From assembly GCA_964408775.1 (NCBI GenBank), contig CAYPAP010000001.1, positions 21,404 to 85,403 on the forward strand: a stretch of DNA of 64,000 bases. The letters are read 5' to 3'. Source of the DNA: an uncultured Gammaproteobacteria bacterium (GTDB lineage: Bacteria; Patescibacteriota; Patescibacteriia; Patescibacteriales; UBA12465). The position numbers and the translations under genes are program-made. The notes beneath the pieces are model-generated. The model did no database searches. It was not told the DNA's origin and saw nothing but the letters and a program-made list of their open reading frames with translations. Below, piece after piece: positions 1,865 through 56,764 of this stretch; the stretch's first letter is position 1, and every line of letters starts with the position of its first letter.

Positions 1865-2158
1865 CTATTCTTCTGATTCCTGCTTAATCTGTGGCGGAAT
1901 TTGCCAATTATTGTTTCTAAAATTACGGTTAGAAGAATTATTTTGTTCATTGTTTTCCGTGCTTCCTATTTTATCAATTATTTTTTTTTCTGTCAAGGGC
2001 TGAACCTCTTCTTTTTTTAGGTCTTTTTCTATTAAATTCTCATACTGATCTAAGGTCATAACAACGAAGGAATTTTCGGGCTCGCTATTGTCAAAAACTA
2101 TAATTCGGTCGCCAGTTTTTTTGGATAAATTTATAACTTGTTTTAATTGCTTAGACAT
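1865..2158 (-). CDS. Small hypothetical protein, N-terminal half Phd/YefM antitoxin-like; inserted between tuf and fusA
   Basis: 97 aa; 'RIIVFDNSEPENSFVVMTLDQYENLIE' resembles the YefM core '[25 protein letters not shown]'; C-terminal N/Q-rich tail; no toxin partner ORF adjacent. Confidence 0.35.
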   Translation of the reverse strand: MSKQLKQVINLSKKTGDRIIVFDNSEPENSFVVMTLDQYENLIEKDLKKEEVQPLTEKKIIDKIGSTENNEQNNSSNRNFRNNNWQIPPQIKQESEE

Positions 2159-2228: not shown

Positions 2229-3368
2229 CTAATGCACATCCAATACAAGATTTTGAAGCATCTCCTCTACAGATGGCTCAGAACCATCAACAATATAAAT
2301 ACGAGGGTCAAAAAATTGGAGTCTAGGAGTAGAAATAGTTGAATAATAATGATAAGTGCGATGTATTGTATAATTATTATCAGCTTTCCACTTAAAATCA
2401 TTAGCGGCAAAAACCTTATTACCATCAACATCATAAACACCAGAATCAACGCTCGCTACTGTGGCAGCAGTGTTATGAGGATGAGTATGGCCAACTATTA
2501 AGTACCATTTATCTTTATCAAAGTCGCTTATATTTCTATAAAAGAAATAGGGATTGGTATTTGAAGCGCCAGTAGTTAAAATAAAAACACCGGTATTAGT
2601 GCTACCCGAATAACCCCTTAAGCCAAGGTAGACTCTCCCGCTAGAATCAACCGATGTTTTTTTAAACCAAACAGAAAAACGATACATTTTTGTGCTATCA
2701 ATAGGCATGTCGGTATAAACGCTATTCCAGCCACCATCAGCGTTATTATCACCAACGGGGCGAGTTTCCCAAACAACACTTTCTTGACCAAAGGGGTTTG
2801 TTCCTAAAACCCTTTCATTTTCAGAGGTTAACCCATTTTGTGTAAAACTAAAAGAGCCTCCATATGTAGTTTTAGAAAGAGTCCCACTGCCGACTGCCCA
2901 ATTAGAGGAGTCAAATACAGGACTCGTAGGACTGCTGATGCCAGCGGGGGTAACCTTTTTTAAACCAGCTGTGTAATTTTCTACTTTTTCTGCAAGACAA
3001 AAATACATAAAATAACTATCCCCATCATCGGAGGAGGAATAGTTATAACTGCTATCCCCGCAAGTCATATCAGTATCATTAAGATTGCTTGGGACTTGCG
3101 ACATAAAAGTAACACCAGTAGAACTGCCTATTAGGGATTGGCCGGAGACTATAGAATCTGGGTAAGTGCCCTCTACCCTTTTATAATTCTCTAAAGCAAT
3201 CTGTATCTGATTAATATTATTTATTTTTTTAATTTCCCTTCCTTTTTGACGAGAATTGGATATAGATAAAAAAACCGTAGTTGCTATTAATGTTATTATA
3301 AAAATTACTCCTAAGAGTTCAATTAACGTAAAAGCCTTCCTTTGATAAAAAATCTTTTTAATACCCAT
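2229..3368 (-). CDS. Type IV pilin-like (prepilin-type N-terminal cleavage/methylation) protein with large C-terminal domain
   Basis: 379 aa; basic leader MGIKKIFYQRKA followed by FTLIELLGVIFIITLIA (class III signal, E at +5); ~300 aa beta-rich C-terminal domain of unknown function. Confidence 0.7.
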   Translation of the reverse strand: MGIKKIFYQRKAFTLIELLGVIFIITLIATTVFLSISNSRQKGREIKKINNINQIQIALENYKRVEGTYPDSIVSGQSLIGSSTGVTFMSQVPSNLNDTDMTCGDSSYNYSSSDDGDSYFMYFCLAEKVENYTAGLKKVTPAGISSPTSPVFDSSNWAVGSGTLSKTTYGGSFSFTQNGLTSENERVLGTNPFGQESVVWETRPVGDNNADGGWNSVYTDMPIDSTKMYRFSVWFKKTSVDSSGRVYLGLRGYSGSTNTGVFILTTGASNTNPYFFYRNISDFDKDKWYLIVGHTHPHNTAATVASVDSGVYDVDGNKVFAANDFKWKADNNYTIHRTYHYYSTISTPRLQFFDPRIYIVDGSEPSVEEMLQNLVLDVH

Positions 3369-5648: not shown

Positions 5649-5890
5649 TTCTAAAAGTTTAAATTTTGTATTCCTAAAAGTTGATATTTTGTGGAAATTT
5701 TTAGGAAAAGGCGAGAAATGAAGCGAGTCTAAAAATTTCCAACCTAATTCTTAAAAGTTTAAATTTTGAGCGAAGTTTTAGGAAAAAGTGAAAAACAATT
5801 TCTAATTAGAAAAATTTAAATTTTAGATGAAGCTTTAGGAAGGGGCGAGAAATGAAGCGAGTCGTATTTTAATACGGCGAGCAAATTTCG
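5649..5890. repeat. Degenerate tandem repeat array (~55-100 bp units) in the rpsG-fusA spacer
   Basis: 'ttctaaaagtttaaattttg' occurs 3 times and 'ttaggaa(a/g)ggcgagaaatgaagcgagtc' twice; GC-rich words in an AT-rich background; rpsG and fusA are normally adjacent. Confidence 0.7.
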
Positions 5891-8520: not shown

Positions 8521-10008
8521 TTATTTTTTGTATTTTTTCATTAAATAAAATAAAATTAAATAATAAATAATAGATAAATAAATTGACCAATTATTAATAT
8601 TAACAAAAGCTCCTGGAATATTATTAACAGAGCCCCCAACAAATAGAATATATTTGATAATTAAATCGATTAATGAATAAAGCAATTGCCCTAAAAATGG
8701 AATAATAGAAGATAATAAAATCGCTACAATGGAAAGAGAAATAATAAATGGCAATAACCACACCACCAATAAATTACTAATGGGAGCAATTAGGGAAAAT
8801 TGTTTAAAGCTGGAAATTAAAATTGGCCCAGCAATTAATTGAACAGAAATTGTAATACTTAAAATATCGATGATAGCCTCGTTTATCCTTATTATTTTAA
8901 AAATTCTCAAACTTAAAAACTCTTTAACTACGGGGTGTATATAAATTATTCCTAAAACTGCCAAAAAAGATAATTGAAATCCCAAATCACCAAAAAGTAA
9001 TAAGGGATTTAAAAGTAATAAAAAAATTCCGGCAAAAAATAAAACATTAACCAGGTTTCCTGCCCTGCCCATATAAACAGCCAGAAATGATAGAAATCCC
9101 ATTAATGAGGCCCGCGAAGCTGAGGCTGGCGCTCCGATTAAGATTAAATAAAAGGCTAAAAATAAAATACTACCATAAAAAGATTGTCGGCGCGATAGAC
9201 CAGAAAATAATAAAAAGCTTAAAAACAAAGAGCTTAGCAAGCTAATATGCATGCCAGAAATAGCAATAATATGACTAAGTCCGGCCCGAGAAAATTTTTC
9301 TCGTAATTCTAGGGACAGAAAAGTTTTATCCCCCAGAAGCATCGCCCTTAAAATCGCCGAAGACTCTAGGCTTAAATAAAAATCAAATTGATTGGCTACT
9401 TTGGATTTTAAATTATTAATAGCAATGAAAAAATTTTTAGCAAAAAAAGATTTTTCTGGAATGCTTATTTTTTTAATATTGGGATAATAGGATACAGCTG
9501 TTATCCCATATCTCTTTAAATAAAGTCCATAATCGAAATCTTCAATAATTCCAGGTTTCTGCCACTTCCCCGAAACTTGCAAAAAATCTCCCAAATTATA
9601 TCGCGGATATGAAACAGAGCTAACTAAGACCCCCCCTTTTAATTTAAACTTGTTATCAAGCTCATCTAGTCCATAGATTATTTTTATTTTAATTCTTTGT
9701 CTTATGTCATTTGATTCCGGCTCAGAAATAATTTGCCCAACCAAGATTAATTCTTGGTTATTATAATTTTCAATTCTTCCTAAAGTGCTTTCAGGAAATA
9801 TTAATAGATAGCGCCAAATGGCTAAAAATAAAAAGAATAAAATTATTAAAAAAATTTTCTTGAATTTTAATAATAAAAGGAGAGATGAGAAAGTAAAAAT
9901 AAAAAATAAGAAAGCGGAAAAATTTCTTAGGAAATAAAAATAATGAGCCAAAAATAAACCGACCACAAAGGATGAGGCTGATATTAACCAAAAATGTTTT
10001 TTAAACAT
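8521..10008 (-). CDS. comEC: ComEC/Rec2-family DNA internalization channel (competence domain only)
   Basis: 495 aa polytopic membrane protein; 'LRAMLLGDKTFLSLELREKFSRAGLSHIIAISGMHISLL' matches the ComEC motif; no C-terminal metallo-beta-lactamase domain. Confidence 0.75.
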   Translation of the reverse strand: MFKKHFWLISASSFVVGLFLAHYFYFLRNFSAFLFFIFTFSSLLLLLKFKKIFLIILFFLFLAIWRYLLIFPESTLGRIENYNNQELILVGQIISEPESNDIRQRIKIKIIYGLDELDNKFKLKGGVLVSSVSYPRYNLGDFLQVSGKWQKPGIIEDFDYGLYLKRYGITAVSYYPNIKKISIPEKSFFAKNFFIAINNLKSKVANQFDFYLSLESSAILRAMLLGDKTFLSLELREKFSRAGLSHIIAISGMHISLLSSLFLSFLLFSGLSRRQSFYGSILFLAFYLILIGAPASASRASLMGFLSFLAVYMGRAGNLVNVLFFAGIFLLLLNPLLLFGDLGFQLSFLAVLGIIYIHPVVKEFLSLRIFKIIRINEAIIDILSITISVQLIAGPILISSFKQFSLIAPISNLLVVWLLPFIISLSIVAILLSSIIPFLGQLLYSLIDLIIKYILFVGGSVNNIPGAFVNINNWSIYLSIIYYLILFYLMKKYKK

Positions 10009-10115
10009 AAAATACCAATAAATTAATATTGGTATTTTATATAAAGCGTTTTAAAGATTGTTTAAATTTTTGATAAATTATAAATATATCAATCAGAGAG
10101 GTTTAAATTAAATAA

Positions 10116-11180
10116 TTAATTTTTAATACAGCGCACAGCATAACCGCTCGCACGAGCATTAGTTCCGGCATAAGCTTCAACACCGCCAAAGAAAAAAAGA
10201 CGCGCATAACCACTTTCTATATTACTGGACCAATAATAGCCATAAAGTCCAGCATTATAAAGAGATCCACCAAAGCCACGATTTCCATTTAAGGTTAATT
10301 TTAAAGACGAGGCAAAAGCTCCAGCTGAATCACTTGAACTCCAAGTTGCCATTTCGGCAGTCCACTCTGCTTCGGTTGGTATTCTAAAGCTGTCTGGACA
10401 GGGATTATTAATTCCATCCAATCCTTGCCATAAATTATTGTTAGAAGGGTTTCGCCAATCGTAAGGATCAGCTGCGGAAATAATAAAATTAGCGTGACCC
10501 GGGGTATCGGAGGTGGCCAATGTCGCTGTCGTGGCCGAGGTTCTGATTTGATGACCATCGTCTAATCTCCCCCACTGGAAAAGGTCGCCATAAGCGTTAG
10601 TGTCAGTAGATGAAATAGCTACCTGGGAAGCTCCAAGGTTGCGATCCAACCAGCATTCGCCAGTAACAGGGTTTAATGCCGTCCCATAAGTTACAGGAGA
10701 TCCGTTATATGTAAAACTCACATTATAACCACCACATTGAGGAGTGCTTATCCCGTTAGGGCTGGCTATTTTTAATCCAGCTGATAAATCAGAAATATTA
10801 CCTCCAACACAAAAACCTATAGTATAAGTTGAGCCATCAGCAGAGGTGTAAGTATAAGCATTATCGCTCTCTTCACAATCTCCGTCTGCTGGAGTAGGGG
10901 CTAAGGGAACTCTGGCCATATAGGTTGATCCTCCGGTAGCTATAGCTGTGTCTATTTCTCCAGTTAAAGGATATACTCCGGTGTCATTATAATATAGCTC
11001 TAGTGCTGTTTGCATCTGCCTGACATCAGCGATTCTTTTGGCGTCTCGAGCATTCTTCCTGGCATTTTGTAGGGACACTACGGCCAGAGTTGATAAAATA
11101 CCTATTATGGCTATCACTACTAACAGTTCAATTAGAGTAAAAGCCGGCTTGGTGGATTTATTATTCTTTATTTTAAACAT
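10116..11180 (-). CDS. Type IV pilin-like N-terminus fused to a Fibrobacter-succinogenes-major-paralogous-like C-terminal domain
   Basis: 354 aa; leader MFKIKNNKSTKPA + FTLIELLVVIAIIGILSTLAV; C-terminus 'FQWGRLDDGH...YGYYWSSN...SGYAVRCIKN' resembles the TIGR02145 Fib_succ_major ending '...GFSVRCVKD'. Confidence 0.6.
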   Translation of the reverse strand: MFKIKNNKSTKPAFTLIELLVVIAIIGILSTLAVVSLQNARKNARDAKRIADVRQMQTALELYYNDTGVYPLTGEIDTAIATGGSTYMARVPLAPTPADGDCEESDNAYTYTSADGSTYTIGFCVGGNISDLSAGLKIASPNGISTPQCGGYNVSFTYNGSPVTYGTALNPVTGECWLDRNLGASQVAISSTDTNAYGDLFQWGRLDDGHQIRTSATTATLATSDTPGHANFIISAADPYDWRNPSNNNLWQGLDGINNPCPDSFRIPTEAEWTAEMATWSSSDSAGAFASSLKLTLNGNRGFGGSLYNAGLYGYYWSSNIESGYARLFFFGGVEAYAGTNARASGYAVRCIKN

Positions 11181-11285
11181 ATTTTTTATTTTATTTATAT
11201 TTTTTAGAATGTTTAGGAGGTTTGAGAGAATTAGGATAATTTTTTTTCTCTGCCAGCGTTTAAAAATTTCAGAATAGATGAGAGC

Positions 11286-11450
11286 GTAAAAACCGTGTAA
11301 AATTTTATTGTTTGAGCGAAGCCGCGTGAGCGCGAAGCGCTTTTACGTGGCGAGCGAGTTTAAAATTTTACTAGGTTTTATAGCGAGCATCCTGAAATTT
11401 TTATCTGCTGGCGATTTTTGCGCCACTTTTTCTAAAAAAGTGGCATTGAA
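11286..11450. other. GC-rich structured intergenic island (prfB 3' region / pilin-gene 5' region)
   Basis: Local GC far above background; inverted repeats gtaaaatttta/taaaattttac, agcgc-gaa-gcgct, tggcg-atttttg-cgcca and gccacttttt/aaaaagtggc; candidate terminator or ncRNA. Confidence 0.4.
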
Positions 11451-11501
11451 TTAATACTTCCATTATAGCAAAAAAAAATAAATTAACAATAACAAAGAAA
11501 A

Positions 11502-23354: not shown

Positions 23355-23380
23355 ATTATTAACAAGATCTTTAAGATGTT

Positions 23381-23527
23381 TACCCGCTCGGATAGCTTCG
23401 CTATCGAACGGGTCCGCTCAATTGCTCGAAGAGCAATCTGAGCGGAGGATCTTTACCCGCTCGGATAGCTTCGCTATCGAACGGGTCCGCTCAATTGCTC
23501 GAAGAGCAATCTGAGCGGAGGATCTTT
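23381..23527 (+). repeat. Two perfect tandem copies of a 73-bp GC-rich element with two predicted hairpins (candidate structured RNA)
   Basis: Unit 'tacccgctcggatagcttcgctatcgaacgggtccgctcaattgctcgaagagcaatctgagcggaggatctt' repeated head-to-tail with period 73; hairpin 1 acccg..(gatagc-ttc-gctatc)..cgggt; hairpin 2 ccgctcaattgc-tcgaaga-gcaatctgagcgg; flanked both sides by gatcttta. Confidence 0.85.
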
Positions 23528-23625: not shown

Positions 23626-25689
23626 TTAATTTCCTATTTCAACAAATTCTACTACTACTCCCCCTTTGTATTCATCTTCTAGCCCATAAAATGAAGCCAT
23701 CAATTCGCCCTTACTATTGAAAGCTCTAACATGGGGGGTCCCCCCTGGTCCAGCACCAGCTATTATTTCATCTAATCCGTCCTTGTCTAAGTCACCCAAA
23801 GCCAAATTAACCCCTCCTTTAAATTTTTCTGCATAGGCTAAGAAGCTTTTAATTTTTTCACCGGAATTATTAAAAACCACAATTTCTGGTTTACGACCTG
23901 GTCCTGGAGAAATAACTATATCAGTTTTTCCTCTGCTATCCTTACCATAGACATTCCCCAGTCGAATTCTAGCTCCACCGAAAAAATCTTCTTCATAAGC
24001 AAAAAAATGACTTGTGAGCTTCCCTTGACCATTAAAAATTTTAACATGAGATCCCCCTTTAGAAAATGGGACCACCGCAATTTCGCTTTTTCCATCTCCA
24101 TCAATATCACCCACTGAAATACTAACTCCTCCGGTAAAATTTTCGTTATAAGCAAAAAATTGACCTTTTAATTTTCCTTGTTGATCAAAAATTCTAATAT
24201 GTGGTCCTCCTCCTGGTCCCGCAGCGGTAACAATCTCGTTTTTACCATCACCATCAACATCTCCCACTGCTACATTAACCCCGCCCCTAAATTTGGGATC
24301 ATAGGCGAAAAATTGTCCCTTAATATTACCAGAATTATCAAAAATTCTAACATGTGGACCACCTCCTAATCCCGCCCCGGTTATTATTTCTGAGGTGCCA
24401 TCTTTATCCAGGTCTGCTACAACCATATTTATGCTACCATTAAACTTTGGATCATAAGCAAAAAAACGACTTTCCTCTTCACCCTTACTGCTAGTGACTC
24501 TGACTGAGTTAAACATCTCCAACTCGTCTTTAAAATCTATAATATCAACCTGAGGAAAAAGCAAGAATCGCCCGGTAAGATTTTCCCATTTTTCCAAAGC
24601 CCAATTAACAGAGCTGGCTAAATTAACCCTTCCACTGCCAAGCTCATTAAGGTTTTCTGGATTTAAGGAATTAATATCATCTGAACTCCTAATTAATATA
24701 TCCAAAACCTGCTTATTGCTTAATTTCGGATTAGCCTCTTTAATAAGAGCCAATGATCCGCTAACAACTGCTGCGGACATGGAGGTACCAGACCAATAAC
24801 CATTGTAATAACTATTTTTTTTATCTTCGGTATCATAAAAAGATGACGAAAAAAAACTTATTCCTGGAGCGGAAATATCTACACAGTTTTTACCATAGGA
24901 AGAAAAAAACGCCTTCTGATCTAAAGTATCAGTTGCTCCAACAGAAATAATAATATTATTGTTATTAGATCCACCGAAACAAGCTGGATAAAGAGGTTCT
25001 TGATCTAAGTCAGAATTATTATTACCAGCAGCTGCAACAACAAGAATACCAGCTCGATAAGCCCTTTCAACAGCCTCTTCAAACCCCTGATTATATCCTA
25101 GCCCCGAAAAACTAAGGTTGATTATATCAGCTCCATTGTTAATAGCATAATCTATAGCCCTGACCACATCATTAATTTTGCCCTCACCACCTTCGTCTAG
25201 AGCTTTAAGCGGCATTATCTTCACATTAGAGGCAATACCACTTATTCCTATAGAATTATTAGTCTTGGCCCCAATAATTCCAGCTATCATAGTCCCGTGG
25301 TTCAAACCATCGTCGCTCCCTCCAAGGTCAAGTCTAGGGCGAGGATCTGGAACATTGTTAACAAAATCCCACCCATTTACATCGTCGATAAATCCGTTGC
25401 CATCATCGTCTTTGCCATTTTCAAAAATCTCAAATTTATTGCGCCAAATATTATCTCTTAAATCGGGATGGTCAATATAAATTCCAGAATCAATCACAGC
25501 CACAATAACATTTTTACCAATAAAATTTTTATTCCATATAGAGCTAAATCCAATACGGCTTAAATACCACTGATTATTAAAATAAGGATCGTTCGGTAAT
25601 TGCCCAAAATAAGCCCGAGAAGGAGGGATTAAAAAAGCAAAACTCACCAATAAAAAAAATGCTAAAATTATAATTACTCTTATTTTCAT
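23626..25689 (-). CDS. Secreted subtilisin-like serine protease (S8) with C-terminal FG-GAP/beta-propeller repeats
   Basis: Start set at 'MKIRVIIILAFFLLVSFAFL' signal peptide (the ORF-track N-extension overlaps rplY); catalytic triad context VAVIDSGI (Asp), HGTMIAG (His), GTSMSAAVVSG (Ser); five repeats of 'FFAYDPKF.GG...GD.DGDG..EI.TGAGPGGGPHVRIF'. Confidence 0.85.
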   Translation of the reverse strand: MKIRVIIILAFFLLVSFAFLIPPSRAYFGQLPNDPYFNNQWYLSRIGFSSIWNKNFIGKNVIVAVIDSGIYIDHPDLRDNIWRNKFEIFENGKDDDGNGFIDDVNGWDFVNNVPDPRPRLDLGGSDDGLNHGTMIAGIIGAKTNNSIGISGIASNVKIMPLKALDEGGEGKINDVVRAIDYAINNGADIINLSFSGLGYNQGFEEAVERAYRAGILVVAAAGNNNSDLDQEPLYPACFGGSNNNNIIISVGATDTLDQKAFFSSYGKNCVDISAPGISFFSSSFYDTEDKKNSYYNGYWSGTSMSAAVVSGSLALIKEANPKLSNKQVLDILIRSSDDINSLNPENLNELGSGRVNLASSVNWALEKWENLTGRFLLFPQVDIIDFKDELEMFNSVRVTSSKGEEESRFFAYDPKFNGSINMVVADLDKDGTSEIITGAGLGGGPHVRIFDNSGNIKGQFFAYDPKFRGGVNVAVGDVDGDGKNEIVTAAGPGGGPHIRIFDQQGKLKGQFFAYNENFTGGVSISVGDIDGDGKSEIAVVPFSKGGSHVKIFNGQGKLTSHFFAYEEDFFGGARIRLGNVYGKDSRGKTDIVISPGPGRKPEIVVFNNSGEKIKSFLAYAEKFKGGVNLALGDLDKDGLDEIIAGAGPGGTPHVRAFNSKGELMASFYGLEDEYKGGVVVEFVEIGN

Positions 25690-25735
25690 ATTAGTAAATT
25701 TTAGCATATTTTTTAGAAAAACAAAAATTGTAAAA

Positions 25736-26389
25736 CTAGCTTTTATTCTCTCCTGTTTTGTCACTTTTTGATTTGTCATCCTTGGCTTCGCTAGCTTCGT
25801 CACCGCTAGTTGCCTCTGGAACATCGGTTTTAGGAAGCTCTTCTTTTTCTTTTTTAGGCTCAACCACAGAAACAACAGCATCATCCGGATTATTTAAAAC
25901 TTTTAGATCGCTACTAACTTTAATATCTTTCACTAAAATAATATCACCGAAGGAAAGAAGAGATGAAATGTCCACATCAATATGGTCTACCAAGTCTTTT
26001 GGCAAGCACTCAACCTCTATAGAATCAATATTTTTCATTAATAAAGCACCTAGCTCCTTCACTGCCCGAGATTCGCCAACAAAGCTTAGTGGAATTTCAG
26101 CGGTTACCTTTTTACTCATATCAACCTGGTAAAAATCAACATGACTAAAAAAATCTTTGATCGGGTCTCTCTGAAAATCCTTAATTAGAACTGGAATCTT
26201 GCCAGATCCATCAATCTCTAATTCTATTAAATTAGATTCACCAGCCTCATCATAAACCTTGGTAAAATCATTGGTTTTAATCTTTATTAAAACATTTTCC
26301 GACCCTGGACCATAGATTATTCCAGGAAAAAAATCTTTGTTTAATTTTTCTTTTTTACTTCTAATTTCAGCTTTTAACTTAATGTTCAT
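25736..26389 (-). CDS. rplY: 50S ribosomal protein L25 / general stress protein Ctc
   Basis: 217 aa; L25 N-domain plus Ctc-type C-domain, ending in an acidic/Lys-rich low-complexity tail. Confidence 0.75.
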   Translation of the reverse strand: MNIKLKAEIRSKKEKLNKDFFPGIIYGPGSENVLIKIKTNDFTKVYDEAGESNLIELEIDGSGKIPVLIKDFQRDPIKDFFSHVDFYQVDMSKKVTAEIPLSFVGESRAVKELGALLMKNIDSIEVECLPKDLVDHIDVDISSLLSFGDIILVKDIKVSSDLKVLNNPDDAVVSVVEPKKEKEELPKTDVPEATSGDEASEAKDDKSKSDKTGENKS

Positions 26390-31993: not shown

Positions 31994-32146
31994 TACTTTT
32001 GCATGAACTTATAGATTCCGTACAACACTAGCGCAGCAATAGAGACTATAACCGAAGTCATCGGATTCCACATCGCAGAAAATAATACTATTAAAGCAGC
32101 TATTATTGCAAAGCCCCCTTCTTTTTTTGAGTCTAGTTTTTTCATG
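31994..32146 (-). CDS. Small hydrophobic peptide (50 aa), possible membrane micro-protein
   Basis: MKKLDSKKEGGFAIIAALIVLFSAMWNPMTSVIVSIAALVLYGIYKFMQK; below the ORF-track size cut-off; start codon overlaps the recombinase ORF start on the opposite strand. Confidence 0.3.
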
Positions 32147-32176
32147 GTGATTTACATTAAATTAATAAAGAAAAAT

Positions 32177-32970
32177 ATGCAAACTCAATTAAATCTCTTA
32201 AAAAGAGAGTTAAAAATAAGGAATTATAGCCCCAAAACTATTGCGTCCTATCTTTATGGGTTAAAAGAATATCTAACATTTAAAAAAGAAAAATTAGGTA
32301 CTTTCGATGAAAATATTATTAAAAATTTTCTTTTAAGTTCTAAAAGCAAAATATCTCCACAAAGTCAAAACATATATCTCGGAGCTATTAAGTTTTATTA
32401 CTATAATATTATTAAAATTAACAAAAAAATAGAAATAAAATCAGTTAAAAAAATCAAAAAACTTCCCGTGGTTCTCTCGCGCCAAGAAATAGAAAAAATA
32501 TTAAATTCAATTTCTAATAAAAAACATAAATTATTAATAGCAGTCTCTTATGGAGCGGGGTTGAGAGTAAGCGAAATTATTTCTCTAAAAGTTAAAGATG
32601 TTGATTTAGAAGAACTAACAATACATATCAAAAACGCCAAAGGAAGAAAAGATCGAATTAGCATATTACCAGAAAAAATAGTAAAAGACCTGAGAGAAAT
32701 AATTGAATCTAAAAATTTAAATAACTATATTTTTGGGAGCAACAGAGGCGGAAAATTGAATTCTAGAACTGCTCAAAAAGTTTTTGAAAAGGCCTTGAAA
32801 AAGACGCCACCTTCCACAGCTTGCGTCATAGCTTCGCTACTCACCTATTAGAAAACGGGGTTGATGTTCGCTATGTTCAGGAATTATTAGGTCATCAAAA
32901 CATTAGAACAACTCAAATCTATGTCCAGGTTACTAATCCTAAATTAAAAAATATAAAAAGTCCCTTATGA
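32177..32970 (+). pseudogene. XerC/XerD-like tyrosine recombinase disrupted by a 1-nt frameshift in an A-run (~32797-32803)
   Basis: N-terminal SAM-like domain (MQTQLNLLKRELKIRNYSPKTIASYLYGL...); the annotated frame ends '...[17 protein letters not shown]', while the +1 frame continues '[40 protein letters not shown]' (catalytic HxxR...Y region) to TGA at 32968-32970. Confidence 0.75.
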
Positions 32971-37149: not shown

Positions 37150-38883
37150 TTAAACTAAGTTAATTTTGTCTTTTTTCTTTTTGCTATATTTGGTATGAAG
37201 AACTCTATGATCCTGACTATTATTTTTTAACCATTTAACCACTTCTACGGCCCCCTTATTATCATGGGCTGTTCTTATTTTAATCTTTTTATCCCCTTGA
37301 TACAACCCGGCCGTTCTTTTTGATACAATTTCCATAGAACTAGGTATGGGTTGACCACCGCCACCAATACAACCACCTGGGCAAGCCATCACTTCAATAT
37401 AATCATATTTAGACAAATTGTCCAGCACTCCCTTAATATTACCTATACCATTAACTACTGCTACATTTAATTTTTTACCGGATAAATCAATTTTAGCCTC
37501 TTTTACACCCTCTAAGCCACGCACCTCTTTAAATTCTAGTCTAGAACGACATATTTTAGCTTTTTTAGGGTCACAGATAACATGATGCGCCGTCCTAAGA
37601 GCTGACTCCATAACACCGCCACTAGCCCCATAAATAATTCCGGCCCCACTGCCGTCATTTATTAAATCATTAGATTTTTCTGGTCTTAATTTCTTAAAGT
37701 CAATATTGTTCTTCTTTATCATAAAAGCTAACTCTCTGACCGTTAAAACCTTATCCACCGGTTTTAACTTACCAATTTTAAGCTCAGGCCGAGAAATTTC
37801 AAACTTCTTAGCCGTGCAAGGCATAATAGAAACAATAACAATATCCTCGGGTTTAATTTTTTTCTTTTTAGCCCAGTAGGTTTTAATAATTCCACCTAGA
37901 TGAATTTGCGGCGAACGAGAGCTTGTGAGATGCGGAATTAAATCAGGCCTATAAAACTCTAAGTATTTAACCCAAGCTGGACAACAAGAAGTCATTAAAG
38001 GTAACCCAGCCTTTTTATCATTCAATCTTTCTAATAATTCCTCGGCCTCAACTAAAGTAGTTACATCGGCGCCAAAAACCACATCCATAACCTGGTCAAA
38101 TCCTAATTTCTTTAAGGCTGCTACCATTTTTCCACTATTATTTTGCCCGTAAGGCAGGCCGAACTCCTCTCCAATAGAAACCCTGGTTGAAGGAGCAATC
38201 ATGGCTATTAAAGTTTTCTTACCTTTTTTAGCTAAAATGTCTTCCACTTCCCCCCAATTATATTGCTCCTGAGCTGAGGCCACTGGACAATGGAGAGCAC
38301 ATTGCCCACAATAAATACAATCGATATTGGGGTCTTGAGTAGGCACTATTTCCTGCGCAGCTCCCTTCCCTTTTATTTCTAAGTAATTTATTTTTTGAAT
38401 ATCAGAGCAAGCATCCACACAATTACGACAATCTATACACTGAGACCCATCAATTTCCACGGCATTAGCAAATTTATATGTTTTACGTTTTACTTTTCTG
38501 TCTTGAAAATTAGTAACTTTCAAATCATACTTTTTTGCTAGGTTTAATAAATCACAATTATATTTTAAAGTGCAACCAAAACATTTCTCAGTATGTTCGG
38601 CAAAAATTAATTTCAAATTAGTGTTACGAGCTTTTTTAACTTTAGGCGAATTTGTAAATATTTCTATTCCATTCTCGGCTAAAACTGAACAAGAGGTCAT
38701 TAATTTATCACAATCCTTCACCTCAACCACACAAACACGACAATTAGCCTTAATTTTTAGGTCTGGGTGATAACATAAAGAAGGAATAAATATTTTATTA
38801 TTCCGAGCTATTTCCAAGATAGTCTGACCTAAATAGCCCTGACATTTTTTACCATCTATTTTTATTTCTATTTTTTTTGGCAT
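37150..38883 (-). CDS. hydA: [FeFe]-hydrogenase catalytic subunit HydA (M3, CpI-like)
   Basis: 577 aa; N-terminal 2Fe-2S ferredoxin-like domain; 4Fe-4S motifs CIDCRNCVDAC and CIYCGQCALHCP; H-cluster motifs L1 'TSCCPAWV', L2 'MPCTAKKFE', L3 'ACPGGCIGGGGQP'. Confidence 0.9.
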   Translation of the reverse strand: MPKKIEIKIDGKKCQGYLGQTILEIARNNKIFIPSLCYHPDLKIKANCRVCVVEVKDCDKLMTSCSVLAENGIEIFTNSPKVKKARNTNLKLIFAEHTEKCFGCTLKYNCDLLNLAKKYDLKVTNFQDRKVKRKTYKFANAVEIDGSQCIDCRNCVDACSDIQKINYLEIKGKGAAQEIVPTQDPNIDCIYCGQCALHCPVASAQEQYNWGEVEDILAKKGKKTLIAMIAPSTRVSIGEEFGLPYGQNNSGKMVAALKKLGFDQVMDVVFGADVTTLVEAEELLERLNDKKAGLPLMTSCCPAWVKYLEFYRPDLIPHLTSSRSPQIHLGGIIKTYWAKKKKIKPEDIVIVSIMPCTAKKFEISRPELKIGKLKPVDKVLTVRELAFMIKKNNIDFKKLRPEKSNDLINDGSGAGIIYGASGGVMESALRTAHHVICDPKKAKICRSRLEFKEVRGLEGVKEAKIDLSGKKLNVAVVNGIGNIKGVLDNLSKYDYIEVMACPGGCIGGGGQPIPSSMEIVSKRTAGLYQGDKKIKIRTAHDNKGAVEVVKWLKNNSQDHRVLHTKYSKKKKDKINLV

Positions 38884-39884
38884 AAATTTGGATAAACATT
38901 TTTAAAATAACTTAAAATAGCGATAGGAGCACAGGCCCCCAAGGCGCAAAAAGAAGATGTTTCTAAATTTTTACATAAATCAACAAAATCACTAACATCT
39001 TTTAAATATGAACGTTTATTTTTAAATAACTCTAATAAACGATAAGTGCCCTCGCGGCAAGGAGTGCATTGACCGCAAGAATTATCGGCGAAAAAACTCA
39101 ACCAATAATTAACCAGCTTTTCAGGTCGATGATTAGAAAGTTTATAAATAGTGATAGACCCGGCACCGGGAACTTTTCTTCTTAATTGTTTCTGATTAAA
39201 TACTTCCCCGCTAGCATCTCCGCCCACTTGAACAAAAAAATCGTATTTAGGATAGTTTTTAGTTTTGATTAAAACATCTTTAATACTTAAATCATCTGGC
39301 AAACTATAAACACCCTTGTTTTTATTTTCTATATTAATAGAATAAAATCTCTCACCAGAAAATTTATTTATACTAACTAAATAAACGTCATATAAGGTCT
39401 CAATATTATTAATCAAAGTCGGTTGGCCAAAAAGTCCCTTTTCGGTTGGAAATGGGGGGCGTAATCGAGGTTCGGCTCTCCCGCCTTCAATGATATTTAA
39501 AATAGTACTTTCCTCCCCACCAATATATCCAGCCCCTTTTGGTTTTTTGATTATTTCAAATTTCCCCTTTAAACCAGCCTTATTAAATTCTTTTATTATC
39601 TTGTTCTTATAAATATCATAATATTTACCATTGAGATAAAAATAAATTTTGGTAGCCTTAATGGTGTCGGAGGCGATCTTAACACCAATAGAAAATTCTT
39701 TTAATAAATTTTTAATAATATAACCATCCTTATAAATACCAGGTTCTCCCTCGGCTCCATTTATTATTAAATATTTAGTTTTGCTTTTAGCCTTGGCTAC
39801 GGATTGCCACTTAATATGAGTTGGGAAACCAGCCCCACCTCGGCCAAGCAAACAAGCTTTTTCTATTTTTTTTATTATCGACAT
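38868..39884 (-). CDS. NuoF-like (51-kDa/HydB-type) NAD(P)H-binding flavoprotein, minimal form
   Basis: 338 aa; 'GRGGAGFPTHIKW' FMN/NADH motif very near the N-terminus; C-terminal 4Fe-4S motif 'SCGQCTPCREG'; overlaps the hydA start by 16 nt (operonic). Confidence 0.75.
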   Translation of the reverse strand: MSIIKKIEKACLLGRGGAGFPTHIKWQSVAKAKSKTKYLIINGAEGEPGIYKDGYIIKNLLKEFSIGVKIASDTIKATKIYFYLNGKYYDIYKNKIIKEFNKAGLKGKFEIIKKPKGAGYIGGEESTILNIIEGGRAEPRLRPPFPTEKGLFGQPTLINNIETLYDVYLVSINKFSGERFYSINIENKNKGVYSLPDDLSIKDVLIKTKNYPKYDFFVQVGGDASGEVFNQKQLRRKVPGAGSITIYKLSNHRPEKLVNYWLSFFADNSCGQCTPCREGTYRLLELFKNKRSYLKDVSDFVDLCKNLETSSFCALGACAPIAILSYFKNVYPNLCQKK

Positions 39885-39915: not shown

Positions 39916-39988
39916 GTCATCCTCCGCTCAGATTATTCTTCGAGTAATTGAGCAAACCCACTCGATAGCAAGGCTATCCGAATGGGTA
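39916..39988 (-). repeat. Third, diverged (~84% identical) inverted copy of the 73-bp element, ~30 nt upstream of the NuoF-like start
   Basis: Minus-strand sequence 'tacccattcggatagccttgctatcgagtgggtttgctcaattactcgaagaataatctgagcggagg' aligns to the 23381 unit; both predicted stems kept via compensatory changes (G-C to A-U twice) and C-G to U-G wobbles. Confidence 0.8.
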
Positions 39989-40213
39989 AATTTATTAATT
40001 ATCCTAATTCTCCTAAATATCCCCCTTCCTGCCTTTGTGCTTATCCTTGCGACTATACTTCTTCTTATTCTTATGAGCCCCACCTTTAAGGCAAAAGGCT
40101 CCGGAGCCAGTTTCTAAATCAGCCTCTCGCCCTCCTTTTTTTAGGCCTTTTAATAAAACCCTTTTCTTATCTTCGTCTGATAAGTTAAAAGATAAATTTT
40201 CCTTCATAATAAG

Positions 40214-49364: not shown

Positions 49365-51347
49365 TTATTGCACCCGACCATCATTACTAAATGAAGCGAT
49401 GATATCATCTTCCAATTTACTAGTCTTAACATCGGTTTGTTTATTAATAATTCCCTCTGTTTCAACATCAAACGCTGTAAGATTTGAACCTGATGATAAA
49501 ATTATTATTTTATTATACTCACTTTCGGTAGGAATTATGCCTATATCAAATTCGGCTTTAATTTCATAAATTCCTACTGGCCAACGATTTATAGTCCAGA
49601 CAACATTGTTATTTTCTATATCAAAACTCAGATTTCCAGCATTAACATTAAAATTATTTTCCCAAACAACATACTTTGGCAAAGGAATCTCAATCTTAAC
49701 ATCCCTAAGTTCATGCAAACTATTTTTTATAGTCCAATAATATCTAAATGTAGTTTTTTCACCCACAACCGGAGGAAGCGGGCCAGAACCAACAGGAATA
49801 TTGTCCTCATCAAAATAGAGGACCTTTTCTTCTAAAGAAAGATTGCTGTTTAATTTATTAATAATAATATTGCTGCGATTATCTGTTAAACGTCCGCTGT
49901 CATCGACAAAATCATCTATATTACCAACACTAAATTGAGCATAACTCTTTACTTCTAACTTCTGACCAACTTCGAATCTTTTGAAATCAGCCACTTTGAT
50001 TGAAAAGCTGATTTCACCCCCCTGCCCTGGCTCTAATTCTTTTAATTCTGGCACCTCACGAAAAGTCCAATTAATAGTTTTTCGACTAACATCTCCTTTT
50101 CTTGGGTCATCTAAGCTGGTCCAATCCAAGAAATCACTTTCTAATACTGCCATAATAACCAAATCCTTCATATCCTTATCACCCTTATTGGAATAACTAA
50201 TAACATACTCTAATTCCTGACCAAAATTAACAGGAAAATCGCTAGAGTTATCATTAACAGAAATATTCAAATGCAAATCACTCTTTATAGACTCTAGAAA
50301 TAATTTCCTATCTAAAAAAACAAAATCCTTTTTATTTTCATCGACATATTTCATTCCCCAGGAGATAAACTCTTCCCCTGCTTTTTTAGAGTTAGCCTTA
50401 TACTTAAACTCTAAAGAAGTGCTAACACCGTTTAACGGTCTAACTTTAAAATTATTATTATCAATTTTTTCGATTTCAAAACTATCATTAGATTTTTCCA
50501 AATCAATACTCTCGATAGAAATATTATCTAAATCATTAAAACTAATAATAAACTCATTAATATTGACAATATTAAAATTATTTATATTTATTTTTAAAGG
50601 ATATTCCTCTCCTACCAAGACAGTATAAAAATAATCCTCAGAAATAGAAAAAGGTAATGAACTAACTGCAATTGAATTAAAATTTTCCTTACTAAAACTA
50701 GAAGATAGGCCGCTAATTTCATAGCCGGTCTTAACTGATAATAAATTATTTAACCCTTCTTGATTGATAATAATCCCCCTTATCTTTATTTTTCCACCGA
50801 CCTTAGAACCTAGAGTTTCTATATTCCAGAGATGATCATCACTAAAAGATTCAATGGAATAAATCTCTGATAAAATAAAGTTCTCGGGATAAGTAACATC
50901 CAAGACAACGTTATTTAAAGTGTAATTACTATTATTTTTATAATCAATTTCATAAAAAAACTCCTCTCCCAGGACAACGCGCTCCGGAGCAGTAATATTA
51001 ATCTCTAAAACCGAAGAAAAATCCTTAGAGCTTCTCATATAATTCAAACCCCAATAAATAAGGCCAGCTAAAATAGCTAGGAATAAAAAGGCATAAAAAA
51101 TAGAGAACCAAAAACTTCTTTTCTTTTTAATTTTAATGGTTTTGAAATCAGGCATATCACCATCATCACTGTAAATATCCATCAAATTATCATTGACCTC
51201 ATCCTTAGAAAGCCTATTTTTCCCAGATGGAGTAAGTTGCTCGTCAGGATTATTTTTTTCATCAACAACAACGCTTGGGTCTGGTGAACTCTCCTCTATT
51301 TTATGCTTTCTGAAAACTAGTTTACTAGATCTCTTTTTGATTTTCAT
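49365..51347 (-). CDS. Hypothetical large membrane-anchored extracytoplasmic protein
   Basis: 660 aa; ~85-aa charged cytoplasmic N-terminus, single TM (FWFSIFYAFLFLAILAGLIYW), ~550-aa beta-rich ectodomain. Confidence 0.5.
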   Translation of the reverse strand: MKIKKRSSKLVFRKHKIEESSPDPSVVVDEKNNPDEQLTPSGKNRLSKDEVNDNLMDIYSDDGDMPDFKTIKIKKKRSFWFSIFYAFLFLAILAGLIYWGLNYMRSSKDFSSVLEINITAPERVVLGEEFFYEIDYKNNSNYTLNNVVLDVTYPENFILSEIYSIESFSDDHLWNIETLGSKVGGKIKIRGIIINQEGLNNLLSVKTGYEISGLSSSFSKENFNSIAVSSLPFSISEDYFYTVLVGEEYPLKININNFNIVNINEFIISFNDLDNISIESIDLEKSNDSFEIEKIDNNNFKVRPLNGVSTSLEFKYKANSKKAGEEFISWGMKYVDENKKDFVFLDRKLFLESIKSDLHLNISVNDNSSDFPVNFGQELEYVISYSNKGDKDMKDLVIMAVLESDFLDWTSLDDPRKGDVSRKTINWTFREVPELKELEPGQGGEISFSIKVADFKRFEVGQKLEVKSYAQFSVGNIDDFVDDSGRLTDNRSNIIINKLNSNLSLEEKVLYFDEDNIPVGSGPLPPVVGEKTTFRYYWTIKNSLHELRDVKIEIPLPKYVVWENNFNVNAGNLSFDIENNNVVWTINRWPVGIYEIKAEFDIGIIPTESEYNKIIILSSGSNLTAFDVETEGIINKQTDVKTSKLEDDIIASFSNDGRVQ

Positions 51348-51417
51348 ATTCTTTAATTAAACAATTTAAATTAAAATTAGGAAAAATAATATAAATTGAT
51401 CTTATTAATTATTTTAA

Positions 51418-54066
51418 TTATTTTAACATAATAACAAAATATCTATCCTTGTCCAAAATATTATTCAACTCTATCTGCCTCAAATTACCACTAATGTTAT
51501 CGGGATAAGTCCAAGCTGGATCCAGATTTAAGTCAGAGGAAAATGATACATCCAGAGAGGAGTCTCTAGATCCTGGTTGCTTCTGCCATAAAAGAGAATA
51601 ATTTTGACTAGGATCTTTAGGAAAAATTTTATTCAAAATACTATAATCATCCTCCAATAATAAAGAGTGAAAATTATAGGGTAACTTGTAAATAATTTCG
51701 ATAACAGCATCGTCTCCTGGGTCAGTAATATTCCAATTAGCAAAAACTGTTTTGCCATTCTCTTGGTAAATTTTGGTTCCGCTTAAAGGGTCGATCTCAG
51801 CGCGATACTCTGTTTTCTCTAAAGTGCTATTTTTTTCGGTTTCCACATCCAAGGTTTTAAAATATTTATCCTCCAAAGAAGAGAAGCCTTTGGCACTTAC
51901 TAAAGAGCTACCCAGTGGAACATAGGTTCTTAGCCAGTTAACATTTCTAGCTCCTGAGAACAAGTCTCCCCTAACCCCCTGATGGCTTCTTTGAATAGTT
52001 AATTTATTTAAAATATTACCAGCCTCATCAATTTCAACCTCTAGACTAAAATTATTTTTAATAAAATAATCTGTTTTTCCACCAGCCACACTAGAGTTTA
52101 CAACCAATAGATAATCTAAGGGTGAGTCCTTAACTCGACCAGCCCAAGATCTCTTTTCAATCTCTGCCTGCATTTTATCATTAACAAAATAAAGTAAAAT
52201 ATTCTTATTACTCAAATTTTCCTCCATTACCTTCAAACTCCCAATTAATAAATTCTGACTAAAATTACCAGAAAATTTTTCTAAAATCTCGGCAATTAAA
52301 TCGCCAATTATTTGTTTAGGTTCATTTCTTAAAAACAATTCTTCCTGCTCACCCTCTTCAGTCTCTTCAATCTCTTTAATATTTTCAGTCTCCCCCAACT
52401 CATCCTCTTTGACTTCAGTAGTAGTTGATTGCGAAGTCGTGGAAACTCTTTCTAAAATATCTGTTTTTAAATTTTTATCCTGATAAACCTCTGGCTGACC
52501 AATAACCTCAACTATTTCCTGAATAATTTCCCAGAAATTTTCCGAATCAACTACCACTCCATATTTTTCGTTTAAATCAACCGGGCCAATAATTTTTAGC
52601 ACATCGGCTAAAACATCTGGGGTCAGACTTATAACTCCATCAACGCTAGGACCTCCGCTTCTCTCATAAAACCACATTAAATTCTGTGCTGACATTTTCC
52701 AATCGGGCCACCAATTAGCATCCCAAAAATACCAAATTGGTTTAACCAGGTGAAGTGGCTTAGGAGATTCTACTAAAACCCTCATACCGCCTTCAGTATC
52801 ATAAGATCCTCCTGGAGGAACCTCAATATTTTTTATTTTACCCCTCTTTAAATCAACTAAAGCATAGCTACCAATAAATCCTCCAGTAGCTCTAATTTCA
52901 GCATTATTCTGAAAAACAACTAAATATCTCTTATCGCTATCAATAGCTAAAAAATCTTTTAGTCCTGGTAGCATCTTTCTAAAATCAGACAAGTTTTTCT
53001 CTAAAACCGCAGAGGCCTCTTTTATGGAAGTAAACTGATCCAAGTACTCAACTGGTATAGATTTGTCCCTAATTTTATTTAAATATTTATTAACATTTTT
53101 AAAGTCATCTTCAACTTTCTCAAAATAATATTCAAAGTCAGAAAACTTACCAGAAACATCGGTTTCTCCCTCAGAAAAAGCCAGGATGAGACTATTCATA
53201 GCCAGGGAGAAATTATCTCCAGCCGATGACAAATGTATACCAATTTGAGCTATTTTTTTAGACTCTGATGCCAACCTCACTTTTTCGTCTCCAGAAAAAG
53301 ATGCTAGAGCGACCATAAATTCATCCATCTTTTTTAACTCCTGATCTAATAATAAAAAATTTTCTCCGGCCTGAAAAAAACTTCTCTGAGCCAAACCTAA
53401 GTCTAGCTGAGAAATTTTATCTGACGCGACCATAAAATCATTTAACGCCGAAGATGATAAGCCCCATAAACTATTTTGAAATTTTTCCTCCACAACAAGC
53501 TGGTAATAACTAAAAATCTTAAAAGGCACAACTAATAAAAAAAGTATTAATACAAAGAGCCATAAAGGTCTTTTTTTCTTGGTTATAATAGCCTTGCTTC
53601 GAACCTTCATGGAAATACGATTTTTTCTAAAACCTCCCTTTACTCCGGCATCGCCGCTCCCTCTTCCTTTTAAGAAAAAAATGTTTTTTTCTAAGAAATA
53701 CTGAATATCTAATAACCAGTCAACAAAAAACCAAACAAAATTTATAAGAAATTTAAAAATTAAAAAAAACAAAGAAAAAATAGATGTTTTTTTAATATTT
53801 TTAAATAGCCTTCCCTTATTACTATCTATTTCTTTTTCAAAAAACAAGTATTTTTTAATATTGCTTTTGAAATTCTTAGGGCTGGAAGGGCTTTTAACTG
53901 CCCTTTTAAGATTGAAGGATGGGATTTTATTTTTTTTAGATAATTTTTTAGGAGTGTGACGATAAGCACTAGTTTCAGGAGTATTGTCATCCGGTCTCAA
54001 ATCCAAAACAAAGCCCGAAGTCTCCAGCTCAGATGATATTTTTATTTTATGCTTTTTTGTTTTCAT
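51418..54066 (-). CDS. Large membrane protein, possibly DUF4012-family (envelope-associated)
   Basis: 882 aa; two TM segments near the N-terminus; 'RYLVVFQNNAEIRATGGFIGSYALVDL' resembles the DUF4012 core motif as recalled; adjacent glycosyltransferases. Confidence 0.35.
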   Translation of the reverse strand: MKTKKHKIKISSELETSGFVLDLRPDDNTPETSAYRHTPKKLSKKNKIPSFNLKRAVKSPSSPKNFKSNIKKYLFFEKEIDSNKGRLFKNIKKTSIFSLFFLIFKFLINFVWFFVDWLLDIQYFLEKNIFFLKGRGSGDAGVKGGFRKNRISMKVRSKAIITKKKRPLWLFVLILFLLVVPFKIFSYYQLVVEEKFQNSLWGLSSSALNDFMVASDKISQLDLGLAQRSFFQAGENFLLLDQELKKMDEFMVALASFSGDEKVRLASESKKIAQIGIHLSSAGDNFSLAMNSLILAFSEGETDVSGKFSDFEYYFEKVEDDFKNVNKYLNKIRDKSIPVEYLDQFTSIKEASAVLEKNLSDFRKMLPGLKDFLAIDSDKRYLVVFQNNAEIRATGGFIGSYALVDLKRGKIKNIEVPPGGSYDTEGGMRVLVESPKPLHLVKPIWYFWDANWWPDWKMSAQNLMWFYERSGGPSVDGVISLTPDVLADVLKIIGPVDLNEKYGVVVDSENFWEIIQEIVEVIGQPEVYQDKNLKTDILERVSTTSQSTTTEVKEDELGETENIKEIEETEEGEQEELFLRNEPKQIIGDLIAEILEKFSGNFSQNLLIGSLKVMEENLSNKNILLYFVNDKMQAEIEKRSWAGRVKDSPLDYLLVVNSSVAGGKTDYFIKNNFSLEVEIDEAGNILNKLTIQRSHQGVRGDLFSGARNVNWLRTYVPLGSSLVSAKGFSSLEDKYFKTLDVETEKNSTLEKTEYRAEIDPLSGTKIYQENGKTVFANWNITDPGDDAVIEIIYKLPYNFHSLLLEDDYSILNKIFPKDPSQNYSLLWQKQPGSRDSSLDVSFSSDLNLDPAWTYPDNISGNLRQIELNNILDKDRYFVIMLK

Positions 54067-54071
54067 TAAAA

Positions 54072-56664: not shown

Positions 56665-56736
56665 AAAAAATAAATAATTATTAGCTTTCTACATTTTAGC
56701 ATATTTATTTTAAAAAACCAATAAGCAACAAAAAAA

Positions 56737-56764
56737 CAAAGACCATTCTGATAGTCTTTGTTTT
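56737..56764. terminator. Intrinsic terminator 3' of the sigma-region-4 gene
   Basis: aaaaaaa-CAAAGAC-cattctgata-GTCTTTG-tttt. Confidence 0.65.

Follow-up and report, generated by a model that had tools for sequence, protein, structure and literature searches.

We describe here the gene next to comEC in a 64-kb stretch of contig CAYPAP010000001.1 (the window: the whole of the 64,000 nucleotides analysed). The open reading frame (ORF) at 10116-11180 on the minus strand encodes a 354-aa modular type IV pilin composed of a prepilin leader, a pilin module and a FISUMP (Fib_succ_major) head, as defined by the ORF, its N_methyl and Fib_succ_major matches and an AlphaFold2 (AF2) model. It is one of the modular type IV pilins that bear a FISUMP head, a class that is known and common though uncharacterised. 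The reading that we favour, with reasonable though far from complete confidence, is that the protein is an adhesin displayed on a pilus, that its binding face is an orphan variable region (VR) of a diversity-generating retroelement (DGR), and that the gene is a self-promoted insert whose adjacency to comEC is incidental. An initial annotation of this DNA had joined the two genes in a proposed DNA-uptake pilus; its observation is essentially right and its interpretation only partly right. The more interesting reading is found at the level of the family, where the heads of pilin-FISUMP proteins appear to have been written by DGRs, the copy in the window now being orphaned. What is new here is the homology to VRs, the hypervariability at template-Asn positions and the bias towards NNY codons in the pilin-FISUMP family.

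A type IV pilin with a FISUMP head

The class III signal peptide that had been assigned to the gene beside comEC is confirmed by two profiles, N_methyl PF07963 (29.2 bits, cut-off 21.2) and TIGR02532 (30.7 bits, cut-off 16.3). The leader itself, located by motif scan, comprises residues 1-13 (MFKIKNNKSTKPA; 11142-11180, minus strand) and is predicted to be cleaved before F14, at the junction MFKIKNNKSTKPA/FTLIE; the resulting KPA/FTLIELL has Glu at +5, and both F14 and E18 are unchanged across 43 homologues. It is followed by the mature pilin module (residues 14-147; 10740-11141, minus strand), which consists of a long alpha-1 helix and a small beta head with Cys102 and Cys124. This structure is drawn from the AF2 model (helix 16-67, strands 80-145; pLDDT 88.4 for the whole pilin) and from PDB profile matches to the N-termini of geopilin, GspG and PilA. 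Foldseek matched the module to the pseudopilin EpsG with a probability of 0.98, and also to type IV pilins. The protein has both the leader and the helix with its beta head, and is a genuine type IV pilin-type protein.

The pilin module belongs to a very large family of Patescibacteria pilins of about 145 aa and shares 85% identity with P0243, a stand-alone pilin of 165 aa from the same genome; the head has therefore been grafted onto what is apparently the ordinary pilin scaffold of the cell. A short linker at about residues 143-148 joins the two parts. The proteins P0001, P0002 (a paralogue of the pilin) and P0243 are all recorded on one 431,656-bp contig. It is conceivable that no extended pilus is made, and that the class III signal and the hydrophobic helix do no more than export the lectin head and fix it to the cell surface or in a short pseudopilus like those of type II secretion system pseudopilins or the archaeal bindosome. 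In keeping with this, the best matches of the module are to the pseudopilins GspG and EpsG (41 bits with TIGR01710 for the former), and pilin-like genes are numerous and scattered in the genome, their C-terminal domains being varied. However, all GspG scores are far under the cut-off (41 against 88.85), the type 4a pili of the organism are indicated to be retractile by the PilT retraction ATPase that the genome encodes, the 85% identity is to a short stand-alone pilin of a type that is abundant in the phylum, and pilins of Saccharibacteria that carry extra domains work in real pili (PMC11623550). We consider an anchor or pseudopilus unlikely.

The head (residues 148-354, 207 aa; 10119-10739, minus strand) has four conserved cysteines and is assigned to the FISUMP, or 'CLec2'-type, class by PF09603, by homology and by its AF2 model. 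The PF09603 match covers profile positions 7-187 of 187 (E 3.9e-7 for the full pilin) and TIGR02145 matches the pilin with an E of 9e-7, while over about 205 residues the head is 50-60% identical to many proteins from several phyla that are annotated as PF09603, 'FISUMP' or 'TIGR02145 family'. Its membership of the FISUMP family is secure because of this whole-domain identity to annotated proteins, and not because of the profile scores. C149, C176, C261 and C351 are invariant in the 43 homologues, a pattern of conservation that suggests extracellular disulfides. The N-terminal lipoprotein signal that is frequent, if not obligatory, in FISUMP proteins is missing and a prepilin leader stands in its place. 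The initial annotation had described a single domain of about 300 aa: its ending, GYAVRCIKN, is indeed the C-terminal end of the ORF, but the domain resolves into the pilin module of residues 14-147 and the 207-aa FISUMP domain.

Modelling the C-terminal domain alone, a check that the initial annotation had suggested, gave an AF2 pLDDT of 96.7. For this model and for the two-domain model the best Foldseek match was the C-terminal domain of Legionella Lcl, which is DUF1566-type and C-type-lectin-like (probability 0.90); the next matches of the head were snake-venom C-type-lectin-like proteins at low probability. A sequence-profile search of the PDB returned pilin N-termini only, a solved FISUMP domain not being detectable by sequence. 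The head is a member of the ligand-binding, C-type-lectin-like class known as DGR targets, and nothing about it points to DNA binding.

The fusion of a pilin to such a head had been thought unusual, yet N_methyl and FISUMP occur together in 48 of the 120 best whole-protein homologues, proteins of about 340-400 aa that come almost without exception from Patescibacteria. We take the entry IPR011871 to be that of Fib_succ_major; the published catalogue of modular pilins does not name it. In that catalogue the IPR012902-IPR011871 combination is the fifth commonest modular pilin architecture, with 40 proteins (Raynaud et al. 2021, PMC8179133 Dataset S1), and modular pilins are thought to be pilus-tip adhesins (PMC8179133). 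The pilin-FISUMP architecture is common and previously catalogued in Patescibacteria, and the only oddity of the present member is a binding face that looks as though it was written by a retroelement.

Two known systems share this design. The PilB and PilC proteins of Streptococcus sanguinis, with vWA and lectin modules respectively (PMC8179133; Shahin et al. 2023, PMC9934059), likewise combine a class III-signal pilin module, a short linker and a bulky ligand-binding module; they differ from the pilin in the window in that its head is FISUMP/CLec2-type and not vWA or concanavalin-like, and its pilin module has a near-identical stand-alone counterpart in the same genome. [quoted passage not shown] The likeness to PilX1 and PilX2 is one of architecture. 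Their heads are beta-jelly-roll/L-type and PLL-type lectin-like, unlike FISUMP, and the TM7x genes are situated in pilus loci, whereas the pilin in the window is alone in a housekeeping region.

An apparent DGR footprint in the binding face

The last 57 residues of the head (298-354; 10119-10289, minus strand) are homologous to DGR variable regions, as established by gap-free alignment, and have no cognate template that we could find. They align without gaps to the peptides encoded by the template repeats (TRs) of DGRs at three loci. In the first, from a member of the Saccharibacteria (L015, 1-3247), a target gene is followed by an Avd-like ORF, the TR and a 417-aa reverse transcriptase (RT), and 97% of the 35 mismatches between TR and VR are at TR adenines. 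The second, in a bin labelled Gammaproteobacteria (L022, 3623-7127), is an intact DGR in which one TR serves three tandem targets and their VRs; the third, on an Omnitrophota contig (L027, 10432-11517), is an intact DGR with one TR and one VR. The pilin in the window agrees with the template peptide at 21 of the 40 positions that are not Asn and retains Asn at only three of the 17 that are, and 16 of the 17 codons at these mutable positions have the form NNY.

The family alignment is hypervariable in its last ~55 residues, where the variable columns are set amid conserved framework residues and an invariant ...VRC. Among 43 pilin-type homologues the 17 template-Asn columns average 3.04 bits of entropy, compared with 1.46 bits in the other VR columns (p about 1e-8) and 1.17 bits in the rest of the head (p 3e-11). 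Y, N, S, G, D and F prevail at the 17 columns, and K, E, Q, M and W, the residues that lie out of reach of AAY-to-NNY mutagenesis, make up 5% there and 14% in control hypervariable columns (p 3e-12). A corresponding bias is seen at synonymous sites: in 19 pilin genes, compared by gapped mapping, 79% of four-fold codons end in C or T at the 17 positions, compared with 61% at the other positions of the domain (p 2e-4). The same NNY bias is present in 65 non-pilin relatives, proven targets included (81% against 58%, p 3e-18); under a gap-free filter just four pilin genes were left and the codon test was not significant. The entropy, the residue depletion and the synonymous-codon bias at template-Asn positions lead us to conclude that the binding face of the pilin family has been marked by DGR mutagenesis.

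The VRs of Fib_succ_major/DUF1566 proteins make up the 'CLec2' class among DGR targets (PMC5758913), and 43 DGR targets from metagenome-assembled genomes (MAGs) have been found to carry FISUMP domains (PMC11661182). In the DGR-target literature cited here pilin-type targets are absent, save for passing mention of a GspG-type pilin domain. DUF1566/Fib_succ_major DGR proteins such as LdtA of Legionella (Wu et al. 2018, PMC5758913) form a class that shares with the pilin the VR segment, the variable positions and a terminal ...SVRC motif. The window differs from these systems in having no TR, RT, Avd or population variation, and in that the protein begins as a pilin and not with a lipoprotein signal.

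The VR in the window is best read as a frozen, orphan copy, because there is no TR or RT nearby and there are no variants on record. Neither the 64 kb nor the fetched loci of the same genome contain a TR-compatible sequence, an RT motif or an RVT match. Contigs from different samples (L001 and L002) carry the same VR sequence, and the exact pilin protein is found on at least five contigs and is the one member of its 90%-identity cluster; within this set no variation confined to the VR of otherwise identical copies is recorded. An intact DGR adjoins none of the 19 pilin-FISUMP genes that were examined. At one locus from a Paceibacterota MAG (L012, 1926-4007) a truncated RT comes after a pilin-FISUMP gene of full length; we regard this as a decayed DGR because the 191-aa ORF corresponds to no more than the C-terminal half of an RT and a TR would not fit.

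Could the head instead be a live target, its residues 298-354 rewritten, and the adhesin retargeted, by an RT and a TR elsewhere in the genome? The homology of the C-terminus to proven VRs, the 16 NNY codons and the footprint across the family are all compatible with this, in some cellular DGRs over 100 kb separate the target from the RT (PMC5758913) and DGRs are abundant in Patescibacteria (PMC8144416, PMC11661182). Yet the lack of a TR and an RT in the 64 kb and the fetched loci, the invariance between samples, the single-member cluster and the count of zero among 19 genes all tell against it. So does a paralogue of the pilin (P0002, 72% identical), which we tried to derive from a common template: the 3' ends of the two genes differ throughout, at synonymous and non-adenine sites as well as others, and that candidate was rejected. 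We hold a live DGR target to be very unlikely. The FISUMP part of the paralogue (L003, 10433-11077) has a GC content at third codon positions (GC3) of 0.41, compared with 0.29 in its own pilin module and a genome norm of about 0.26, and this head may have been acquired or rewritten more recently.

An insertion into a conserved gene order

The window has a GC content of 33%, nearly all of its genes are on the minus strand and its gene content is typical of the Patescibacteria, or Candidate Phyla Radiation (str operon, dcw cluster, ribosomal proteins, aminoacyl-tRNA synthetases); the nearest database relatives carry the name 'Patescibacteria group bacterium'. The pilin gene and comEC are on the same strand with 107 nt between them. 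They lie in a backbone of genes for a penicillin-binding protein, a Mur ligase, prfB, ComEC, L28 (on the other strand), an M50 peptidase, YdjM, S12, S7 and EF-G that is kept in relatives down to a ComEC identity of 51%. At 49% identity (L209) just the core of prfB, ComEC, L28 and M50 is retained, and at 43% (L210) the gene context is unrelated. Within this order the pilin gene stands between prfB and comEC in the window and in the relatives whose ComEC proteins are 91% (L005) and 68% (L206) identical; in those at 57% (L207) and 51% (L208) it is absent and prfB is directly followed by comEC. Among 78 loci of FISUMP relatives from GTDB species representatives, one (L051) has ComEC within 10 kb, which is about chance level at few copies per genome. 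The pairing of pilin and ComEC made in the initial annotation is a lineage-specific insertion, and the adjacency is real but weak evidence of shared function.

The insert seems to come with its own promoter. Directly after the prfB stop codon there is a promoter-like site, TTGTTA-N16-TGCTATAAT (11462-11489, minus strand), with a 10/12 match and an extended -10; it is kept in the three insert-bearing genomes (the window, L005 and L206) and is missing from the insert-less L207 and L208. Between this site and the pilin start codon lies a leader of ~280 nt (11181-11461, minus strand) whose sequence contains several GC-rich hairpins. The leader sequence is not conserved among the insert-bearing relatives, that of L005 having tandem GGATCATTA-like 9-mers instead. 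Comparison of the GC-rich hairpins with the other GC-rich repeats of the window revealed no kinship, and a search of Rfam for a riboswitch or other known RNA found no match in the leader or around the hairpin described next.

The other end of the insert is bounded by an older element. A conserved, AT-rich hairpin of 16 bp (...AAUACC...GGUAUUUUAUG; 10005-10042, minus strand), identified by folding, includes the ComEC start codon in its 3' arm and has a folding energy of -21.4 kcal/mol (z -4.8). It is also found upstream of ComEC in L005, L206, L207, L208 and L209, with compensatory changes at 4 of 14 pairs in six sequences. Its presence both with and without the pilin insert shows that it belongs to the old prfB-comEC junction. 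This hairpin could terminate the upstream gene, occlude the translation of comEC, or do both.

There is a second variable site in the same gene order, the slot of the str operon that comes after EF-G, between fusA and tuf. In L005 and L208 this slot is occupied by pilin-FISUMP genes, in L206 by the gene for a giant Flg_new repeat protein of 1241 aa, and in the window by a second pilin gene. Recent horizontal transfer of the pilin genes was considered on account of their raised GC content (0.41-0.44 against 0.33) and was rejected: their GC3 of 0.30-0.32 is near the norm of 0.25-0.29, and GC content is similar in all of the pilin genes of the genome, which counts against recent transfer.

ComEC and DNA uptake

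The product of the adjacent gene (8521-10008, minus strand) is a ComEC/Rec2-type channel protein of 495 aa in which DUF4131 (PF13567) and Competence (PF03772) are present and the beta-lactamase domain is not. Competence scored 179.1 bits over profile positions 1-264 of 270, and DUF4131, an N-terminal OB-fold, scored 47.7 bits (cut-off 31.6); the score with the full-length ComEC equivalog TIGR00361 was 90 against a cut-off of 190. ComEC/Rec2 of Bacillus subtilis and other transformable bacteria has the same Competence domain and preceding OB-fold but possesses in addition a C-terminal metallo-beta-lactamase (nuclease) domain. Profile searches found no Lactamase_B match in the ComEC of the window nor in any of its 120 best homologues, all of which are 397-573 aa long and have DUF4131 and Competence only. 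The protein had rightly been called minimal, but this is no special feature of it: with every one of the 120 best homologues equally reduced, it is the ordinary Patescibacteria form.

The initial annotation saw in the two genes a possible DNA-uptake pilus; in the model that follows from this, the pilin is the tip or receptor subunit and acts together with a co-expressed ComEC to scavenge DNA. The genes do share a strand with a short gap, their adjacency is held in relatives whose ComEC proteins are 68-91% identical, and it recurs with tight spacing in L051 and nearby in L209. Since there is no promoter-like site between the hairpin and the ComEC start, comEC must be transcribed from upstream, possibly from the pilin promoter. 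In many bacteria both type IV pili and ComEC are needed for transformation (PMC12153270), and the genome encodes PilT. Set against these points, the pilin is absent from between prfB and comEC in the two relatives at 57% and 51% identity, ComEC is near the FISUMP gene at only one of the 78 loci, and the remaining pilins of the genome, like the 72%-identical paralogue, sit amid unrelated housekeeping genes. The hairpin that divides the two genes, and that takes in the ComEC start codon, is older than the insert. The whole pilin has a pI of 4.8 and the head one of 4.7, an acidity that sets them apart from the known DNA-binding pilins, and the head is of a ligand-binding, lectin-like class that DGRs diversify. 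Like the DNA-binding minor pilins of competence pili (ComP of Neisseria, ComZ of Thermus, the monoderm Com pilus), which act upstream of ComEC in DNA uptake (PMC12153270), this is a type IV protein; unlike competence minor pilins, it has an acidic, lectin-like head, no com or pil operon link was found for it, and its adjacency to comEC is not conserved. We find a DNA-uptake role to be unsupported, with no evidence here in its favour, and a competence pilus to be quite unlikely.

Other pilins and pilus machinery of the genome

A six-frame motif scan found exactly two prepilin leaders in the 64 kb, that of the pilin beside comEC and that of an ORF at 2229-3368 on the minus strand between fusA and tuf. 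The latter encodes a second modular pilin of 379 aa (N_methyl 21.6 bits) with a different C-terminal domain of 232 aa, for which no Pfam family was found even at E<=10; a LamG-like fold is a speculative candidate. That the second pilin of the str operon has a near-identical leader had been noted before and is correct (RKA/FTLIELL compared with KPA/FTLIELL), and the two proteins have in addition a homologous 147-aa module, 37% identical over residues 4-147. In the gap between the second pilin gene and tuf there is a 97-aa ORF (1865-2158, minus strand) with a weak match to the PhdYeFM antitoxin family only; a partner toxin gene is not evident.

Elsewhere in the genome the paralogue P0002 lies near yidC, rnpA and dnaA, and at least three other pilins, of 147 aa (L003, 5963-6406), 165 aa (L211, 10001-10498) and 234 aa (L213, 10001-10705), are each encoded singly among housekeeping genes. 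P0002, P0243 and P0247 are on one 298-kb ENA contig together with the gene for a PilT/PilU-family type 4a pilus ATPase of 396 aa (L213, 15778-16968; TIGR01420, 389 bits, cut-off 319), which has the genes for RNase III and for a metallo-beta-lactamase as its neighbours. At L211 19549-20498 a protein of 1768 aa begins that contains a T4SS_pilin domain. Profile scans of the window proteins detected no pilus machinery genes in the 64 kb. The initial annotation had held that its reading would fall if the genome lacked a pilus ATPase; that objection is void because the genome encodes this PilT/PilU-family enzyme.

A proposed pilus-displayed adhesin

The features described above fit together in the following scheme for a pilus-displayed adhesin. 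A prepilin peptidase would remove the 13-residue leader and the pilin module would then be built into the cell's retractile type IV pilus, most probably at the tip. In this way the FISUMP/C-type-lectin-like head, stabilised by its predicted disulfides, would be displayed as an adhesin and may bind a glycan or protein on the surface of a host or partner cell. The gene would have been put between prfB and comEC, in a conserved housekeeping order, as a self-promoted cassette, and the binding face of about 57 residues at its C-terminal end would once have been written by adenine-directed mutagenesis by a retroelement that is no longer nearby.

Several observations weigh against this scheme. The PF09603 score of 30.9 bits is just below the curated cut-off of 33.9, and it remains so for the head alone (33.6 bits, E 5.8e-8); TIGR02145 gives 29.7 bits against a cut-off of 41.65. 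The resemblance to Fib_succ_major reported in the initial annotation is thus upheld by whole-profile matches with E values of about 1e-7 and by the 50-60% identity, and not by the curated cut-offs. The fold matches to C-type-lectin-like structures are weak, the best having an E of 0.08, and neither the two-domain model nor the head alone has any Foldseek match at E<=0.001. Residue -1 of the predicted cleavage site is Ala and not the canonical Gly; G, A or S is found at this position among the homologues. A composition rich in Y, N, S, G and D is typical of binding sites generally, and it is the synonymous-site bias that leads us to prefer mutagenesis over plain binding-site composition. The DGR search covered the 64-kb window and fragments of the genome. 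In the distant genome represented by L051 a FISUMP ORF abuts ComEC (32% identical) directly upstream, and in L209 a 741-aa pilin-FISUMP gene is just upstream of prfB-comEC; these two cases imply some recurrent association with the comEC neighbourhood. Finally, a check of the pilus genes that the initial annotation had proposed located the PilT ATPase alone, PilB, PilC and PilD not being found in the window or the genome loci examined.

Other features of the window

Several further features were recorded in the window. The intergenic region between rpsG and fusA (5665-5863) contains three degenerate copies of a repeat of ~65 nt. A GC-rich unit of 73 nt is repeated in tandem at 23375-23520, downstream of an epimerase gene, with copies that are 99% identical, and an inverted copy of 85% identity is found 16 kb away at 39919-39990, near NuoF-like and hydrogenase genes. 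The ORF at 23626-25884 (minus strand) encodes a subtilase of 752 aa with FG-GAP repeats and has within it three tandem repeats of 153 nt (23925-24383). Among the very few plus-strand genes is a short ORF of the phage-integrase family (32144-32851, 235 aa). ARAGORN found no tRNA gene in the 64 kb, and there is therefore no obvious attachment site for this ORF.

At 37150-39884 (minus strand) the gene for a [FeFe]-hydrogenase large-subunit-type protein of 577 aa overlaps that for a NuoF-like FMN/4Fe-4S subunit and is adjoined by a GAPDH gene; the hydrogenase/NuoF-like pair is a fermentative hydrogen-metabolism module. A cluster of large genes related to the surface or envelope occupies 49365-58923 (minus strand). 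Among their products are a 660-aa protein with DUF11/DUF7619, an 882-aa protein with DUF4012, two glycosyltransferases and a protein of 343 aa in which sigma-70 region 4 is combined with a HARE-HTH domain.

Significance

The locus itself is ordinary: a catalogued modular pilin and a standard Patescibacteria ComEC that are adjacent by insertion, not by design. Its wider interest comes from the footprint in the pilin-FISUMP family, of which one Paceibacterota member still has a decayed RT alongside. We suggest, as a tentative possibility, that Patescibacteria graft DGR-mutable CLec2/FISUMP heads onto a pilin scaffold and so turn type IV pili into hypervariable organelles of host recognition, much like the phage tail fibres that are diversified by DGRs. 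The head in the window would then be frozen or remotely served, and its position ahead of comEC could link attachment with DNA uptake. If the footprint is true, the 17 positions of the binding face offer a concrete set for experiments, and episymbiotic, ultrasmall bacteria would have retargeted their pilus adhesins by retroelement hypermutation, a capacity that would bear on how these episymbionts find their hosts and switch between them.

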